NCBI GenBank assembly: GCA_024679065.1
Contig: JAGIQG010000010.1
Coordinates: forward strand, 10,106,001 to 10,170,000
Source of the DNA: Sphyrna mokarran
Lineage: Eukaryota
Direction of reading: 5' to 3'
DNA: 64,000 nt
A program made the position numbers and the translations under genes. The notes beneath the pieces are model-generated. The model ran no database searches. It had not been told where the DNA came from and saw nothing but the letters and a program-made list of their open reading frames with translations. Numbering within the stretch: the first letter of the stretch is position 1; every line of letters starts with the position of its first letter. Shown here in pieces: positions 2,922 through 59,025 of this stretch.

Positions 2922-3090
2922 CTGATGGGGAGATACTGGATTGGAAGTGGGTAAACACAATAAGAAATCTCACAACATCAGGTTAAAGTCCAACAGGTTT
3001 ATTTGGTAGGAAAAGCCACTAGCTTTTGGAGCACAGCCCTTTTGTCAGGTGAGTGGGAGTTCTATTCACAAACAAGGCATATAAAGAGTC
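2922..3090 (-). mobile_element. Penelope-like element terminal fragment with degenerate hammerhead
   Basis: Homologous to the 3' part of the GIY-YIG-bearing copy at 27371-27920; core reads CTGACAA..CAAAA (CpG-decayed). Confidence 0.75.
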
Positions 3091-5043: not shown

Positions 5044-5977
5044 TTAAATGTATATACCTTTGCTATAACCCAAATTCCACCTATGGTGAACTCTCAAATA
5101 AACTGGACACAAATAAAATACTATTAGCCTTGAGTCAGAAAATAACTTTGGAGTCAACGGAATAAAAAAACCTCAAATCTTTAAGGAGTTAAACACAATC
5201 ATTTAGCTATCACTTTGATCCAGGAAGGAGGAAAACTTCTGGTGGAAATATTTTTAAAATATCATTGCGTGTTAACCATTAATGAAATCGCTGTTGTAAA
5301 ACCATAGAAATGATATAAATAATAAAACCGATTTTGTAATGAACTGAGCAATGTATTTCCTGCACTACCCCACCATCCCAACCTAATAGAACAAGAAGTT
5401 ATGTCCATATGTATGTCAAGTAATCTAGCATGTGTGACACATGCCTGAAATTGTATGTGCCTGGTCTGAAATTGGGGAAGAGCTGGAAATGGGCAGATAT
5501 TCTCAATCAGGCAAGCTTATTGCCAGCTTCCCCACTTGGAAACTTCCTCTAATTCAAGCGACTAACAAAGTTATAATATTTGACCATCTTGGTGCTTTTA
5601 AAGATAATGGACAAGAACCGTGCAGCCAAAGACGCCATAGGTTTAAGATGAGAGGGGAGAGATACGAAAGTTCCAGAGGGGCAATTTTTTGTGAAGCAGT
5701 TTGGGATGATTCATTATAATAAAGGTGCAATGTAAATGCGAGTTGTTGGAACTGGCAGTACTTGAAAAATAAAACCAGAAAATCTTAAACCATAAGACCT
5801 TAAGATCATAGAAACAGAATTAGATCATTCGGTCCATCGAGTCTGCTCTGTCATTCAATCATGGCTGGTTTCCTTATAGAGTCATAGAGTCAGAGATTTA
5901 CAGCATGGAAACACACCCTTCAGCTCAACTTATCCATGCTGTCCAGTTTTTAACACTAAGCTAGTCCCAATTGCCTA

Positions 5978-6610
5978 TAATCTCGAAAGGGTCAAAATAC
6001 AAGAGCTGGGATGTACTTTTGAGGCTGGGAAAAGCTCTGATTGGACCCCTTTTGGCATATTGTGAGCAGTTTTGGAAACCATATCTATGGAAGGATGCTA
6101 TGGCCTTGGGAAAGATCCATAGGAGGTTCACTAGAATGATCCCTGGAATGGAGAGCTTGTTGTATGAGGAACGGTTAAGGACGCTGGGTCTGTACTCATT
6201 GGAGTTTTGAAGGATGAGGTGGCATTTTATTGAAACTTAGAGGATACTGCGAGGTTTGGATAGAATGGATGTGGACAGGATGTTTCCACTAGTGGGATAA
6301 ACTAGAACCAGAGGGCACAACTTCAAGCTAAGGGGAAGATCCTTTAATTCTGAGATGAGGAGGAATTTCTTCAGTGAGAGGGTGGTGGATCTGTGGAACT
6401 CTTTGCTGCAGAATGTTGTGGAGGCCAGGTCATTGAGTGTCTTTAAGACAGAGATAGATAAGTTCTTGATTGGTAAGGGGATCAGGGGTTATGGGGAAAA
6501 GACAGGAGAATGGGAATGAGAAAAATATCAGCCATAATTGAATGGCAGGGTAAACTCGATGGGCCGAGTGGTCAAATTCTGTTCTGATATCTTATGGGCT
6601 TATGGTCTTA
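5978..6610 (+). mobile_element. CR1/HER1 LINE 3' fragment (ORF2 C-terminus and tail)
   Basis: ORF 5971 reads ..LAYCEQFWKPYL..RRFTRMIPGMESLLYEERLRTLGLYSLE, typical of CR1 ORF2. Confidence 0.9.
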
Positions 6611-6651
6611 AGGTCTTCTGGTTTTCATCTTGAAGTATTGCCAGTCCCAAC

Positions 6652-6868
6652 AGAGAGTGGTGAGTGTCGAGAACAAGTTGCGAGAGGTAGTAGTAGAGGC
6701 AGATACAATTTTGTCTTTTTAAAAGCATTTATTCAGTTGTATGGGTAAGATGGGTATAGAGAGATATGGGCCAAATTGGGGCAATTGGGACTAGCTTAAT
6801 GGTTAAAAAACTGGCAGCATGGACAAGTTGGGCTGAAGGGCTTGTTTCCATGCTGTAAACCTCTATCA
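6652..6868 (+). mobile_element. CR1 LINE 3' end (second subfamily)
   Basis: CAGAGAGTGGTGAGTGTC..GGCAGCATGGACAAGTTGGGCTGAAGGG..TTTCCATGCTGTAA. Confidence 0.8.
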
Positions 6869-10189: not shown

Positions 10190-10395
10190 ACAGTAAGATG
10201 TCTCACAACACCAGGTTAAAGTCCAACCAGTTTATTTGATAGTAAACCCACAAGCTTTCGGAAATGCTGTTCCTTCGTCAGGTGTGTGGAAAGTTTTGCT
10301 CAGAGAAGGACATATAAAGAAAAACACAGTTTACAGAATACTGTTTAGAATGCAAGTCTTTACAGCTAACCTGCTATTCAAGTCATAAAGGTACT
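10190..10395 (-). mobile_element. Penelope-like element terminal fragment
   Basis: CAGTAAGATGTCTCACAACACCAGGTTAAAGTCCAAC.. homologous to the 27371-27920 3' UTR. Confidence 0.8.
10249..10284 (-). ncRNA. Minimal type I hammerhead ribozyme motif, intact core
   Basis: Minus strand CAC-CUGACGA-A-GGAA(CAGCAU)UUCC-GAAA-GCUU-GUG: stem I CAC/GUG, stem II GGAA/UUCC, palindromic AAGCUU in place of stem III. Confidence 0.75.
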
Positions 10396-12805: not shown

Positions 12806-13189
12806 ACCCAGCAAATCCCCAGCCACCCCACCATTCCACCCTGCCCGCACCCAACCTCTCCCCCTCCCCACCCTGTCCCTCATCAGGAAATCCCATTTGG
12901 CTGCCCGAGCTCATGTCAGTTTCACTTTCCTTTTCATACTAACGCTCGAGGAGTTGCAACTCTCACTTTTTCCCCCCCGCAAACAAAGATCAACCGATGG
13001 ATGCTGTAAAAAGAATTCAAAGCGAGAAAAAGGAACAGATAATGTGAACAAGTACAGAGGAGGACTCAAAGCAACAAAAAGAATGCAAATGTAAAGTCAT
13101 GCTAAAGATGTACATGTTACTGAAAAGTACGCGCCAATAATGCTGATTGTCCAATCTATTCACAACAATAGCACTCAGTACAGAGAGAT

Positions 13190-13403
13190 AAAGGCAAAAT
13201 ACTGCTGGAATTGGAAAGAAAAACAGAAAATGCTGGAAAAGCTCAACAAGTTTGATAGCAAATGTGGAGAGAATAGACCAAAGGTTCAACTTTGGATGAC
13301 CCTTGATCAGAGCTGCTCTGACAAAGGGTCATCCTGACTTGAAACATTGGCTCCATTCTCTCTCCACAAATGCTCTCAGACCTGTTGAGTTTTTCTGCTT
13401 TTG
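13190..13403. mobile_element. Fold-back element built from two inverted copies of a second hammerhead-bearing (PLE-type) repeat
   Basis: Inverted arms centred on T13314; right arm CTGACAA-A-GGGTC(ATCCT)GACTT-GAAA-CATT. Confidence 0.7.
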
Positions 13404-13685
13404 CCTCGATTAGCTTATTGCAAAAGGGATGATAAATAGATTCAGGGCATTTGACTTCAGAATTTTTGAGTATGGGTTCCCAGTCAGGGTGGTAGATTGC
13501 TTCCACATGGCAACACTCCAATGCCAGCTATTCCTTGATTTGTAACTTCTATTCTATCCCAATTACACACACCAACCAAATGTCAGAAAGATATACCTCA
13601 TTGTGTAATTGTGGTATTTCCATTCTCATGTCAACCTTCCTTTCGCCAGCCTGGCATAAGTGGGAAGTTTAACGATAATGCGTGG

Positions 13686-16388: not shown

Positions 16389-16479
16389 CAAAGCTTTGGG
16401 GAATGCTTATGCCTGGTTTCGAACCAGAGAACTTCTGCATGTGAAGCAAATTTGAAAACCACTACACTGCAGTAACACT

Positions 16480-17511: not shown

Positions 17512-17802
17512 ATCCATAAATTCCCTACAGTACATAGAGTCTGCCCCGAACACAATCCCATCCAAGCTCTATTCCCATAACTCCACATATTTATCTTGTT
17601 AATCCCCTAACATTAGGGTCAATTTAGCATGGTCAATCAACCTAACACACACTTCTTTGGATTGTGAGAGGAAAACAGTGTGTCTGGAGGAAACCCGTGC
17701 AGACATGGGGAGAACATGCAAACTCCAAGCAGACAGTGACCAGAACTTAACCTGGATCTCTGGTGCTGTAAGGCAGCAGTGCTAACCACTGTGCCACCAT
17801 GG
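17512..17802 (-). mobile_element. V-SINE, tail type A
   Basis: Consensus match. Confidence 0.85.
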
Positions 17803-18543
17803 CAGACTGTCCCAGTGTGCCACAACAATGCTGCTTGGATGCCCTGGAATGATCAGAAGTTTAAGCAAAGGCATTCTCCTGATATCCCACTCTTTGGGGA
17901 CAGTAGCAAACATAATAGCTGGGCAATTTGTCTCACTAAGCATTACTTAATATTGGGTAATGTGCTTCAGAGATGCAATTTTTCCACTTTCAGCTACTGT
18001 TCCCCAACCTACTCTGCTCAGACGTGAAAGTGATACATAATGTCAGAGCAAAGAATGTGGGAGCTTTCCAGAGACAACATTCCAGAAGTTTAATATCTCT
18101 GAGGTGTATGTCTGCTATGATGTACTGGCTACCTTGAGCCCACGTGGCAGTATTAATCCTGTCTGTGAGAGGTAGAATTGAACATTATTACAGCATAACT
18201 TAACACATGACAGAAAGTCAGAAATTAGCACAATGATCAAACAAGGAATCACATTAGAAAAGGAGTTTAATGGTTATTAATTTCTCTACGAGTTAATAAT
18301 CTGTGCATTCATTTCCGCATCTCAGACAAGATACATCAACCATAGCAGGGGTGCAGCACAGATTCAGTAGAATTTAACATGGCTAAAATATGTAGAGAAT
18401 AGAGGGATTTAGACCATGTAGAGGCAAGAAAATATTAGATAGAAGAGATATCTTTGTTGGCACAGACTTGGTGGGCCAAAAGGCCTGTTCTTGTGCTGAT
18501 TATTCTTTATTCTTTCTTTGTAAAAGAATTAAAAAGAGTTCTT

Positions 18544-18876
18544 GTGGCACAGTGGTTCGTATTACTGCCTCATAGCTCCAGGGACCCAGAAGCAATCTGG
18601 CCTTGGGTGACTGTGTGGAGTTTGCACATTTTCTCCATGTCTGCACAGGTTTCTTCCAGGTGCTCCAGTTTCTTCCCACAATCTGAAGATGTGTGGATTA
18701 GATGGATTGGCCACACTAAATACTCCTTCATGTCCAAAGATGTCTAGTTTAGGGAGAATAGCGAGTAAACTGGTGGGGTTAAGGGGATAGAGTCTAGAGA
18801 AGATGCTCTGCCGGAGAATTGGTGCTGACTCAATGGATTGAATGGCCTCCTTCTGCATTGCAAGGATGCTATGATC
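18544..18876 (+). mobile_element. V-SINE, tail type A
   Basis: Consensus match. Confidence 0.85.
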
Positions 18877-19054
18877 TAATGATAAGGCTCCCTCCAAGGT
18901 TTCACGGCTAAGGAAGGAGCATTCGTAATGGTCAATCTGCAAATCCAACGTGCCCTTGATAAGAGTGAGAGAACTTCTTGGGTCAGTCATGCTTGATGTG
19001 GAATTGTACCCCTCACTGTCTCACCACTGACCAGCAATCTGTTCCAGGTGAGCT

Positions 19055-19270
19055 ATGATATGGAGATGCCAGCATTGAACTGGAGAAAACACTATAAGAA
19101 GTCTTACAGTTAAAAGTTAAAGTCCAACAGATCTAGCTGGTAGCAAAAGGCACTAGCTGTCCGAGTGCTGTTCCTTCATCATGATGAAGGAGCAGCACTT
19201 CGAAAGCTAGTGGCTTTTGCTACCAAATAAACGCGTTGGTAATTAACCTGGTGTTGTGAGACTTCTCACC
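19055..19270. mobile_element. Fold-back of two inverted PLE terminal copies fused at the hammerhead core
   Basis: Perfect palindrome TCCTTCATCA|TGATGAAGGA centred at 19181/19182; imperfect arms of about 85-90 bp. Confidence 0.85.
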
Positions 19271-27370: not shown

Positions 27371-27920
27371 TGTACGACAATCACCAGGCAGGTGTGTTCC
27401 CTTCCAGTCGGGAACACTTCAGCAGTCAAGGACATTCAGCCTCTGATCTTTGGGTAAGTGTTCTCCAAGATGACCTTCAAAACACACGACAACACAAAAT
27501 CACCGAGCAGAAACTGAGACCCAAGTTCCGCATGCATGAGATTGGCCTCAACCAGGTTCTTGGGTTCATGTCACACTACATTTAACCCCTGCCATTTGGC
27601 CTGGGCTTGCAAAATCTTGCTAATTGTTCTGATAATTCACACCCTCTTTAATCTGTGATTATCTCTCTCTCCACTTTCACTGTCTGTACTTGCAAAGACT
27701 TGATTACCTGCAAAGACTCACACATTCCAACCATTATCTTATAATTGTGTCTTTGTCTATATACGTGATGTTTATGAAACCTATCTTTACACTCACTTGA
27801 TGAAGGAACAGCGCTCCAAAAGCTCATGATTCCAAATAAACCTGTTGGAATTTAGCCTGGCATTGTGAGACTTCTTACTGTGCCTACTCCAGCCCAATGT
27901 TGGCATCGCCACATCATGGC
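27371..27920 (+). mobile_element. Penelope-like retroelement 3' part: GIY-YIG endonuclease C-terminus plus 3' UTR with degenerate hammerhead
   Basis: ORF 27370: EHFSSQGHSASDL.VSVLQ..EQKL..KF..H..GLN..LGF, the typical PLE endonuclease end; hammerhead remnant CAC-TTGATGA-A-GGAAC(AGC)GCTCC-AAAA-GCTC at about 27794-27828. Confidence 0.85.
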
Positions 27921-30659: not shown

Positions 30660-30796
30660 CCATTCACCTGATGAAGAGGCAAACCCTGAAAGTTTGTGAG
30701 TTTACTATCAAATAAATTGGTTGTACTTTAACCTGGTGTTGTGAGACTTCTTACTGTGTTTACCCCAGTCCAACACCGGCATCTCCACACCATGAC
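30660..30796 (+). mobile_element. PLE terminal fragment
   Basis: Homologous to 27790-27920. Confidence 0.8.
30665..30698 (+). ncRNA. Minimal hammerhead motif (core intact, stem II weakened)
   Basis: CAC-CUGAUGA-AGAGGCAAACCCU-GAAA-GUUU-GUG. Confidence 0.55.
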
Positions 30797-32424: not shown

Positions 32425-32695
32425 CAGAGGCACAGTGGTTGACGCTGCTGTCTCGCAATGCCAGGGACCTGGGTTTGATTCCCGGGTCACTGTGTGGAAT
32501 TTGCACTTTCTCCTCATGTTTGGGTGGGTTTCCTCTCACAGTCCAAAGATATGTAGTTTGGTGCATTGGCTGTGCTAAATTCTCTCTCAGTGTGTCTGAA
32601 CAGGCGCTGGATTGTGGCGACCAGGGGATTTTCACAGTAACTTCATCATAGTGTGAATGTAAGCCTACTTGTGACTAATAAATAAATAAAATAAA
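32425..32695 (+). mobile_element. V-SINE, tail type B
   Basis: Consensus match with (AATA)n end. Confidence 0.85.
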
Positions 32696-32751
32696 GTCAC
32701 TTTTGGATATGGAGTCTCCTGTATCAAACGCTAACTGGCCGTTTCTGATAT

Positions 32752-32876
32752 CGATGGGATTTGCTGTCTACGCTCACCCCAAGGCCAGAATGTCCTGCCC
32801 AAGGTCAATGAATCTTTGCATGGTCCATGAACCACCTGCTCCATTCCTATGTGGGCAGGATGGGAAAATTCCATCC
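32752..32876. mobile_element. ~125-bp TIR/MITE copy
   Basis: GATGGGATTT..GGAAAATTCCATCC. Confidence 0.65.
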
Positions 32877-33339
32877 ATTACACGTTCACGATGACTTCAT
32901 CAGTTCACTGAAACACTTCAGAGTGTAAGTTGATCTAAACAGACAACTCGAACACCTCTGTGCCATTTGTAGTGACCATTTTGAAATGTCTGCAATGTTT
33001 CTTTGGACTGCATTAAAGCATTTCAGAAAGCCGCGAGAACTATATAGAAAACCTGAATATCATTGCCCTCCCTATGATAGCCATTTTGAAATATCTATAA
33101 TGATGTTCAGGTATTTTATGGATAAAGTATTTTTCTTGCAAAAAAAAAACTTCCAGCAGGTCATTCATTCAACAATGTGGGAATAAAAAACACTTTTTAT
33201 TCCCTCAGTGATTTTTTTCTTATGGAATTGGCCTGGAGGGTTGGCAACCATGAATAGTCCATCTGACCTATCTACAATCAAATCCTTCTGAGATGCGCCT
33301 CTATATCAACACTTACCTGATCACATTAACTACCACTAT

Positions 33340-33668
33340 TTGTTTATTTATTTGTGTCACAAGTAACACTGCAATGAAGTTACTGTGAAAATCCCCTAGT
33401 CGCCACACTCTGGCATCTGTTCAGGTACACTGAGGGGGAATTTAAAATGGCCAATGCACCAAACCAGCATGTCTTTCAGACTGTGGGAAGAAACTGGAGC
33501 ACCCGGAAAAAGTGCAAAGTCCATGCAAACACACAGACATACAGACACACAGACGCGCAGACACATGAGAGGGACCCAAACCCCAGGAATCAAACCCTGT
33601 CCCTGGTGCTATGAGGTAGCACTGCTAACCGTGCTGCCCTTAAGTAATCTCATGCCACCGTGCCATCC
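33340..33668 (-). mobile_element. V-SINE, tail type B with internal CA-rich expansion
   Basis: Consensus match. Confidence 0.8.
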
Positions 33669-36492: not shown

Positions 36493-37602
36493 TTCGAACG
36501 GAGCAGATTCCACTTATCAAATGACATTTGATAGAAGCCTAGAAAGGTCTTCTAAGAAACCGTTTATAAGATGAATTCTGGCGGCCTGATTCGAGTTTAT
36601 TGAGAGATTCAGAGGTTTATTAGTTTTATAAAGATCTCATCACTCAATCATGATAAGCATTTCAGTGACATGGCTCAGGGGCTACTAATAGCTACATGAA
36701 TGGTATGACTACAGGAATGTGGGAAGAGAGAGAAAAGAAGCACGTGGCATTAATACGCAGCTCATGTTCAAAAACATCTGATAGGCAGATGATGTGAAAC
36801 TGGGAAGAAAGGGCACATCATTTAAAAGCTTGTTTGCATTCTAACAGATAAACGCAGAAAGCAGCAACGTGTAGGGTCATTTAAAAACTGAGTTTATGCG
36901 GCACTCTGGAAATGACATGTTGTTGATTCCCCCTGAATATTAATTTCTGTGCTTTGATCAGGGAATTACATTAGTCAGTTGCATTTCTGCAGAATAAAAG
37001 AATGAGAGGTGATACCAAGGACTGATCCTTACCTTAGTCCCACCTACCCGAATTTGTAATCTTCAAACCCTCGCAGATTTCCCCTGGTTAGGATTCAATG
37101 GCAGTGCCACAGTGTGTCTCCACATGCAGCCCCCTCTCCTCACCTGCCCCTCCACCCCTCTCCCGGCTCCCCCCTCCCCAGCCACTGGCAGATGAAGCAG
37201 GGTCACAACACCAGATTAAAGTCTAACAGGTTTATTTGGTAGTATGGGACTTAGTAAGATAGAGGGTTGTAGATAAGCCTACTAGGAAGGGATATGTTCA
37301 GCGCAACTTGTGGGCTGAAGGACCTGTTTGTGCTGTAGTTTTTCTATGTTCTACGTTCAAACGCCACTAGCATTTAGTTAGTTAGGATGAAACAGGCCAT
37401 TTAAATTGCACTTACTTCAGTTGGATCATAACATCTCATTGGGCAAGAGGGAGCCACTCAGATCCCAGTGCACATCTGAAGATCCTTTCCCTGACTCGAC
37501 CTGAAACTCCAATTTTAAAGATCGCCCTGCAACCCCACCTCCCTGCACACCACCCTTCCCAACTGCACCCCCACTCCCTGACCACCAGCCCCGATGCTCT
37601 AA

Positions 37603-45029: not shown

Positions 45030-45775
45030 CATCGTACAATCCCTGCAGGGCAGAATGGGCCATTTGTCCAATGAGTCTGCCGTTGAGTTTGCACTGACTC
45101 TCTGACAGAGTATCTTATTCAAGTTCTCTCACCAGCCCTTTCCTATAATCAATCTAACCTCTACATCTAACTTGCAATAAAAAAAAGAACTCAGCCCTGG
45201 CATATCCCTGCATTGTGGGCCCTCTTTCTAGAGCAGCACGGTGGCAAAGTGGTTAACATAGCTGCCTCACAGTGCCAGGGACCCGGGTTTAATTCCGGCC
45301 TCAGGTGACTGTCTGTGTGCGGTTTGCACATTCTCCCTGTGTCTGGTGGGTTTCCTCCAGGTGCTCTGGTTTCCTTCCACACCCCAAAGTTGTGAAGGTT
45401 AGGTTTATCGGCTGTGCTAAATTGCCTCTTAGTGTCAGGGGGATTAGGAGGATTACGGAGACAGGATCTGGGTGGAACAGTTGCTGGCGCATGCTTGGCA
45501 AGCCAAATGGCCTCCTTGTGCACTGTAGATTCTATGAACTTGGGACACTAAGGGGCAATTTAGGATGGCCAATTCACTTAACCTACACACCTGTGGACTG
45601 TAGGAGGAATCCAGAGCACGCAGAGAAAACCCGTGCAGACACGGGGAGAACATGCAAACTCCATACAGACAGTGACCCGCGACTGGAATTGAAACCGGGT
45701 TGCTGGGTGACTGTGCGGAATCTCCATATTCTCCCTGTGCGTGGGTTTTCTCCAGATTCTCCAGTTTCCTCCAAC
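45030..45775. mobile_element. Cluster of four V-SINE pieces in alternating orientation
   Basis: 45030-45160(-), 45232-45537(+), 45538-45700(-), 45704-45775(+). Confidence 0.8.
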
Positions 45776-51952: not shown

Positions 51953-51990
51953 ATGCTACCTTATAGAAAGGTCCGGAGAAGTTAGTTGGT

Positions 51991-52095
51991 GTTCTGAAGC
52001 AGAGTCACCTTGGACTCATAATGTTAACTCTCTCTCTCTCTCTATCCCCAGATGTTGCTAGACCCATAAAGATTTTCCAGCATTTTCTGTTAATA
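51991..52095 (+). mobile_element. Single arm of the second hammerhead-bearing repeat (degenerate)
   Basis: GTT-CTGAAGC-A-GAGTC(ACCTTG)GACTC-ATAA-TGTT-AAC then CAGATGTTGCTAGACC..TCCAGCATTTTCTG; homologous to 13315-13403. Confidence 0.65.
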
Positions 52096-58431: not shown

Positions 58432-59025
58432 TCATGGTATTCCTGGCGCAGAAAGAGGCCATTCATCCACAATCACACCCAGGCCCTATTCCACAACCCC
58501 ATGTGTTTAACCTTCTAATCCCTCAACACTAAGGGGCAATTTAGCCTGGCACATAACATGAACACCTTTGGAGTGTGGGAGGAAACTGTAGCACCCAGAG
58601 AAAACCTACGCAGAGGCAGGGAGAGTGTGCAAACTCTGCACAGTGACTTAAACTGGGAATCGAACACGAATCCCCGGCGCTATGAAGCAGCAGTACTAAC
58701 CGTTGTGCCTCCCCAGAACATAATTATGTACTATAGTGCGACACAGTAGCACAGTGGTTAGCACTGTTACCTTACAGCATCAGGGATCTGGGTTCGATTC
58801 CCAGCTTGAGTCATTGTCTATATGGAGTTTGCACATTCTCACAGTGTCTGCGTGGGTTTCCTCCAGATGCTCCAATTTCCTCCCACAGTCTGAAAGATGT
58901 GCTGGTTAGGTGCATTGGCCGTGCTAAATTCTCCCTCAGTGTACCAGACTGTACTGACTAGGAGAATTTCACAGCAACTTCATTGCAGTGTTAATATAAA
59001 CCTGCTTGTGACTAATAAATTAACT
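58432..59025. mobile_element. Head-to-head V-SINE pair: type A (-) 58432-58712 and type B (+) 58738-59025
   Basis: Consensus matches about 25 nt apart. Confidence 0.85.

Follow-up and report, generated by a model that had tools for sequence, protein, structure and literature searches.

Head-to-head inverted ends of a Penelope-like element family in Sphyrna mokarran and a candidate transcription-start edge beside a decayed hammerhead motif

Introduction

Penelope-like elements (PLEs) that carry an endonuclease (EN+) have been described with inverted ends. In Adineta vaga, palindromes at head-to-head junctions, a tail on one side only, a target duplication and a putative TATA box and initiator within the pLTR have been reported (PMC3846280), and the inverted pLTR layout has been presented for PLEs in general (bioRxiv 2021.04.23.441226; PMC8557442). 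In the accessible text of these reports the junctions are explained by self-priming and are not tied to a start site; PMC8557442 names the way in which tandem and inverted PLE structures form as an open question. Metazoan PLEs also contain minimal type I hammerhead ribozymes, for which a U3–A8 variant has been described, and in Schistosoma dual hammerhead motifs are found on opposite strands, 100–700 bp apart (PMC4209133). In Penelope of D. virilis the internal promoter lacks a TATA box, and an intron precedes the hammerhead (PMC2377424, PMC4209133). For PAc, the Poseidon element of Anolis carolinensis, two internal reverse-transcription start sites define the tail in vitro, both strands are cut and extended, and the hammerhead lies upstream of the start sites; the accessible part of that study contains neither transcription-start mapping nor inverted products (PMC11167929). 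A search of freely accessible papers returned nothing that ties PLE inversion points to a start site or to twin priming.

In this study, we analysed a palindrome at 13188–13403 of a 64,000-nt stretch of DNA (the window) and the PLE family to which it belongs (the 13188–13403 family), with a second PLE family (the 19055 family) for comparison. With inverted-pLTR EN+ insertions (Pen2a_Av of A. vaga, PMC3846280; PMC8557442; D. virilis Penelope, PMC2377424) the family shares a head-to-head inverted end, a one-sided tail of 30–40 nt, target duplication, a GIY-YIG frame upstream of the end, and the putative TATA and initiator of the pLTR, as far as these are set out in the accessible text. Unlike those insertions, the window palindrome has no coding part, its arms measure only ~90–130 nt and its junction is bounded at one position. 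The core, the extra base before stem II, the short stem I, the palindromic positions 15.2–16.2 and the U3–A8 variant are as in the available description of metazoan PLE hammerheads (PMC4209133), whereas the window motifs, unlike the dual motifs of Schistosoma, lie side by side in a decayed state and are predicted to be trapped in a hairpin. Non-LTR retrozymes, as the accessible preprint text presents them (10.64898/2026.07.22.740005), are likewise non-coding and PLE-derived with a type I hammerhead, but they form head-to-tail tandems with active ribozymes, whereas the window element is head-to-head, decayed and apparently not self-copying. A retrozyme was ruled out as the identity of the element by its head-to-head pair with decayed cores in place of head-to-tail intact units.

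Materials and methods

End positions are counted from the C of CUGA, taken as 0. In a genome search with the palindromic query, 40 of 4,384 candidates were scored, and 27 distinct loci were aligned. Because matches to a palindromic query lean to the query's own axis, they were left out of the axis counts, and a random sample (120 evenly spaced 10-kb stretches, 1.2 Mb in total) was used together with arm-only and tail-only queries. Before counting, we removed the loci of the queries themselves and three duplicates from each query set (L012, L019, L027, L054, L057, L081 and L266). Target-duplication counts pool all query sets, with 300 swapped flanks as the control. Contigs were taken from four sequencing runs, one of which may be the window's own source.

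Results

Structure of the window palindrome

The inverted-repeat search of the window placed the axis of the palindrome at T13314, where a sequence-only reading had put it. The outer arm pair (13236–13272 and 13359–13395) is 84% complementary and the inner pair (13278–13313 and 13315–13350), with 1 nt between its arms, is 81% complementary. The folding energy of the 216-nt palindrome is −91.9 kcal/mol (z = −9.45), and none of 200 shuffles folded equally well. The left arm (13212–13314, minus strand) is an inverted copy of a PLE end (profile match 13315–13189, E = 2.7e-24), whose 5' end is the A four nucleotides before CUGA and whose hammerhead core is decayed. It is followed by the PLE tail (13188–13211, minus strand), which the alignment of 27 loci identifies as a 3' extension of ~30 nt; 24 nt are present here, 6 nt being deleted, and the tail is unpaired and on the left arm only. 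The right arm (13315–13403, plus strand) is a tail-less copy of the PLE end in direct orientation (profile match 13314–13405, E = 3.4e-20) and has a short internal deletion close to its end in the alignment. The head-to-head junction (13314–13315) coincides with the putative transcription start of the parent element, and a decayed minimal type I hammerhead (13315–13352, plus strand), assigned from its sequence and from family pair counts, opens the right arm. There is no coding part between the arms, GIY-YIG is absent from the window copy itself, and a target duplication was looked for around the palindrome and none was found. The window palindrome is a short, decayed insertion of an endonuclease-bearing PLE, an ordinary and dead locus. 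The arms and the core letters were as the sequence-only reading had given them; its extent of 13190–13403 needed correction, since the element begins at 13188 with the tail, which that reading did not mention.

A solo tail-less arm at 51990–52092 (plus strand; profile match E = 1.6e-10), which had been taken for a copy of the same family, is real, but belongs to a related subfamily. It begins just before CUGA and keeps the stem I GUU/AAC, and its core, including GAAA, is decayed.

Two small features of the window copy recur elsewhere. The 6-nt tail deletion (13200–13211) and the right-arm deletion (13389–13403) are seen again among L003, L004, L008 and L018, with both in L003; slippage between short repeats or a sublineage are possible explanations, and the query favours such matches. 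The segment 13360–13395 is a pyrimidine tract ending in CAG, after which the family majority has ATG and then stays open as far as the tail end; the parent's frame may begin here, or the segment may act as a splice acceptor.

The comparison element, a fold-back of the 19055 family at 19054–19269, has its tail on the left arm only. In line with the claim that the two elements have no similarity outside the core, blastn of the window palindrome against the 19055 element gave no match. The window contains five more 19055-type arms, all unpaired (2923–3049, 10190–10282, 27796–27916, 30667–30791 and 37195–37245), four of which reach CUGA and keep native-looking upstream sequence. At six loci (L053, L088, L099, L137:7051–7174, L143:3487–3607 and L311), 19055-type copies lie inside arms of the 13188–13403 family, near the same pyrimidine stretch 30–50 nt after CUGA, possibly through an insertion preference of one PLE for another's end. 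Other inverted arrangements in the window are neighbouring copies of a tRNA-derived SINE-like repeat (58526–58940, 1793–2540, 17610–18733, 32556–33464 and 45348–45775), with weak Rfam tRNA matches at 58740–58813 and 16404–16476 and no tRNA gene according to ARAGORN, and a 45-nt inverted pair (5744–5788 and 6608–6652, 82%) around LINE-like sequence, which resembles a further short PLE-type arm split by insertion.

Parent Penelope-like element

Copies of the 13188–13403 family that extend upstream contain a pyrimidine-rich stretch and then a frame with VY..YIG and C/H motifs. The atlas places this frame with GIY-YIG clusters at 0.96; the best Pfam GIY-YIG match (E = 4.9e-4) is under the curated cut-off, and the Pfam scan of upstream frames found GIY-YIG in 0/8 pieces of one set and no match in many decayed pieces. 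At 21 of the 24 loci found with the GIY-YIG frame of this family, an arm is present downstream in the same orientation. A separate GIY-YIG frame occurs in the 19055-type family (Pfam E = 3.4e-5; one match above the cut-off), and the endonuclease frames of the two families are homologous (31% over 91 aa, E = 9e-11). Because of this homology, and because a TATA-like box lies ~35 nt before CUGA in both families, a common ancestry is simpler than convergence, and the families are relatives rather than independent inventions.

The largest paired copy, L330:2419–5870, is a decayed copy of 3.45 kb with a tail-less inverted arm, a tailed direct arm, a duplication of ~15 bp and a broken GIY-YIG frame between its arms. 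By eye, its broken frames also contain what we take to be RT-like motifs. Pfam gave no RT match in 7 pieces, and the atlas pointed, as a lead, to a cluster at 0.90, 14% of which bears RVT_1. Among 20 long-frame loci there was no full-length copy and no intact RT, and no copies running past the tail into a frame start were shared among 160 and 126 tailed arms. Four small contigs (L342–L345) contain a near-identical PLE fragment and inverted arm inside LINE-like sequence, representing either a larger duplicated unit or assembly duplicates.

Fold-back layout in the two families

In both families the arms of a pair are unequal. Exactly one arm has the tail in 9/10 random-sample pairs of the 13188–13403 family and in 18/19 of the 19055 family, and the tail is on one arm only in 25/27 palindrome-query pairs of the former. 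In the 27-locus alignment the tailed outer end is fixed and the opposite arm lacks the ~30 nt. Target duplications of 8–17 bp flank 15/53 pairs of the 13188–13403 family, against 0.7% of swapped flanks, and duplications flank 38/74 pairs of the 19055 family, against 1.7%; among unpaired arms at the edge, a duplication is seen in only 3/24 and 0/8. At the other end of the arms, 15 of 23 pairs of the 13188–13403 family have a tail-less arm that exceeds the tailed arm at the 5' end by 8 nt or more, one shows the reverse and seven lie within 7 nt; the same comparison for 40 pairs of the 19055 family gives 17, 11 and 8, with 4 unclassed. The junctions vary from locus to locus, and several in the 27-locus alignment are exact palindromes around the self-complementary AGCT.

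Paired and unpaired arms are equally alike (0.89, 0.884 and 0.881). On a weakly resolved tree, they are separated by 8 changes against a shuffled mean of 9.9–10.0, with 73–82 of 500 shuffles as low, and this absence of clustering is in line with each fold-back having been formed anew at its site. The identity of sister arms (0.83, against 0.81 between loci) is confounded by locus choice and carries no weight. As a rough extrapolation, the 10 pairs in 1.2 Mb correspond to ~23,000 per genome for the 13188–13403 family and its relatives.

Position of the 5' ends

In the 13188–13403 family, no paired arm passes −7 in the 1.2-Mb random sample (0/21) or −12 with the arm-only query (0/28), and 13/15 unpaired arm-query copies end at −7 to +7. 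Many paired arms stop short of the edge, as far as +57. The axis is therefore bounded and not fixed, the arms ending between −12 and +57, at the edge or downstream of it. The match to native upstream sequence falls from 0.46–0.48 at −5/−4 to a background of 0.24 at −6 in 83 arms, a set that includes loci picked with the palindromic query, and only 4/47 arms have native sequence up to −35. In contigs of the four runs, loose ends exactly before the A at −4 are among the top positions listed (390, 274, 371 and 305 contigs); the reference for this edge is a promoter-bearing copy with a variant at −5, so that the edge could be −4 or −5. The loose letters before it agree at just 0.33–0.35 in the four runs, and 5 of the 10 strand-switch joints listed start at the edge. 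There are exceptions to the edge: the ends of one flank pair are at −158/−49, L330 has an inverted arm that continues for ~240 nt beyond it, and 10/52 unpaired random-sample arms, from mixed subfamilies, pass −10.

A TATAA motif starts at −34/−35 in 34 of the 38 arms that have TATAA within −45 to −20, which is 30–31 nt before the A at the 5' edge, and it is retained in two subfamilies with differing spacers. Such TATA-to-start spacing marks a polymerase II start. From the motif spacing and the DNA ends, we infer that transcription starts at the A four nucleotides before CUGA. The edge also falls on the first base of stem I and adjoins the pyrimidine tract and CAG. An extra-G cap signature was not seen at −5 (C in 17, G in 10 and A in 4), and there was no pile-up at the cleavage site (+31), where 2/29 tail-query arms end at +29 to +36 against 11/29 at −7 to +6 (12 of the 29 arms occur in the arm-query set as well). 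A depletion of promoter-bearing copies by selection was rejected as the origin of the edge: it would thin copies near −35, not make an edge at −5.

In the 19055 family, 49/77 arms pass −35. Among the remaining 28, the match drops from 0.79 at −6 to 0.46 at −7 and 0.29 at −9, a step that lies 29 nt after the TATA-like box and 3 nt outside stem I, which starts at −3. Paired arms spread from −200 to +78, and only 13/37 paired random-sample arms end in −10 to +9. Thus, the 5' edge just before CUGA is sharp in the 13188–13403 family and a weaker step in the 19055 family.

Hammerhead motif

The core of the right arm comprises CUGACAA (13318–13324), stem II (13326–13330/13336–13340), GAAA (13341–13344) and stem I (13315–13317/13349–13351), with cleavage predicted from the motif between 13348 and 13349. 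Both window arms are decayed, the right by G8 to A and the left by CUGAUCA and GAAC, and the two abutting motifs are predicted to be locked in the hairpin. Because none of the 27 Rfam matches to the window at E ≤ 10 was a hammerhead, the assignment rests on the motif, the stems and covariation. The majority state of the family has the core, CUGANGA and GAAA, as the earlier reading had expected of a consensus, though both boxes are intact in 13/142 family arms. In 28 hand-picked rows 89.3% of the pair cells are paired, against 14–48% in slid controls, and the core pair is C3–G8 in 14 and U3–A8 in 10; a shuffle test on these stem pairs is inflated by related rows, and the signal is mostly this one subfamily change. 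U3–A8 occurs in 29/36 arms of one subfamily, with a GUC cut triplet (loci L254, L242, L248, L255, L260, L264, L115 and L117), whereas the window's subfamily has C3–G8 and GUU. Pairing kept through the C3–G8/U3–A8 change indicates that the motif was under selection in the parent elements, while it decays in the copies.

Discussion

The sequence-only reading had seen in the two families a convergence on fold-back at the hammerhead, had taken it as a hint that the ribozyme fold is linked to how palindromic PLE derivatives form or are mobilised, and had considered this a candidate for an undescribed system. The PLE origin is borne out, as longer sister copies run into the GIY-YIG frame; the link to an autonomous PLE extends to that frame and stops short of a full-length copy. 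Inversion at or just 5' of CUGA holds as a sharp edge in one family and a weaker step in the other, not as a fixed axis. Fixed outer ends and duplications were found in sister copies; no clade of fold-backs was seen. Convergence is not supported, the endonuclease frames being homologous; nor is a causal role of the ribozyme fold, given the ends and the position of the 19055 step, nor an undescribed self-mobilising palindrome, given that no clade was seen, that the junctions differ and that the layout is published.

We consider it likely that a fold-back consists of two cDNAs, primed on both sides of a staggered cut, that were joined after running off the RNA at its 5' end. The parent element has the conserved TATAA box 30–31 nt before the A that is the first base of stem I. 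Transcription would start at that A, so that the hammerhead would fill the first ~40 nt of the RNA. By analogy with the Anolis PLE in vitro, the enzyme would cut both strands, and reverse transcription would proceed from two internal sites ~30 nt apart, at about +100 and +131, so that only one of the two arms would include the tail. Each cDNA would end at or before the RNA 5' end, the ends would be joined, often via AGCT, and gap filling would leave the target duplication. The product, having no TATA box, would be a dead end, and every fold-back would arise anew. The ribozyme would then mark the axis only because it adjoins the start site. The TATA–start–hammerhead layout is not universal, since the promoter and intron of D. 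virilis Penelope differ from it.

That the edge at −4 is exactly the first base of stem I in the 13188–13403 family, that the core was under selection in the parents (C3–G8/U3–A8 counts) and that a step lies within 6 nt of CUGA in both families could also be explained if the folded hammerhead, or a protein bound to it, set the fold point by halting the reverse transcriptase where stem I has its 5' edge. We regard this as unlikely. The 19055 step lies outside stem I, an enzyme travelling 3' to 5' would meet stem I first at +34 and not at −4, and cleavage would put the ends at +31, where few are found; moreover, in the accessible text of the respective studies, hammerhead mutants left insertion of the Anolis PLE in vitro unchanged (PMC11167929) and Naiads make inverted insertions without canonical hammerheads (PMC8557442). 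The exactly palindromic junctions are what would be expected if one cDNA folded back, primed itself and copied itself, with AGCT as a hot spot, which is the reading given for A. vaga PLEs in the accessible part of PMC3846280. Here, however, the tail is on one arm and the longer 5' end on the other in 15/23 pairs (17/40 in the 19055 family), and unpaired copies, in which self-annealing has no role, end at the same edge. Each arm holds sequence that the other lacks, which calls for two templates and cannot be given by self-copying, so that we think self-priming rather improbable as the origin of these pairs.

Alternatively, the edge might mark a 3' splice site, or slippage might occur in the U-rich tract that immediately precedes it; both readings are very unlikely in our judgement. 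The pyrimidine tract and CAG precede CUCUGA in the 13188–13403 family, and the D. virilis intron ends at helix I (PMC4209133, accessible text), but there is no common upstream exon, the loose letters hardly agree, and the 19055 step has neither an AG nor a U-rich tract. Finally, the palindrome itself could be mobile, as a master palindrome, a retrozyme-like RNA or a DNA-transposon MITE; its high copy number (10 pairs in 1.2 Mb) and fixed outer ends would fit such a unit. Against it stand junctions that vary among loci, arms that are unclustered and equally alike whether paired or not, asymmetric one-tailed ends, duplications of 8–17 bp, sizes up to 3.45 kb and the missing promoter, and we attach hardly any weight to it. 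A MITE in particular was ruled out by the asymmetric ends, the 8–17-bp duplications and the lack of a cluster of its own.

Conclusions

In conclusion, the layout of these fold-backs is already known, and what the sequences analysed here would add is a base-level edge at a TATA-spaced position and the two-template argument. On balance, we lean towards the view that the inverted ends of PLEs arise by twin target-primed reverse transcription, and that the stumps record at base resolution the 5' end of a TATA-driven transcript beginning with the hammerhead. The family statistics predict that inverted ends need two RNA-templated syntheses and that the ends of short products mark the transcription start and not the ribozyme cut. 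For annotation, such ~200-bp palindromes should be read as retroelement stumps, and not as MITEs, microRNA hairpins or active double ribozymes. If this view is correct, tens of thousands of stumps in the genome would record an RNA 5' end, promoter-bearing truncated copies would act as SINE-like donors of promoterless stumps of ~135 nt, and the loss of the TATA box from run-off copies would account for the need for partial tandems.
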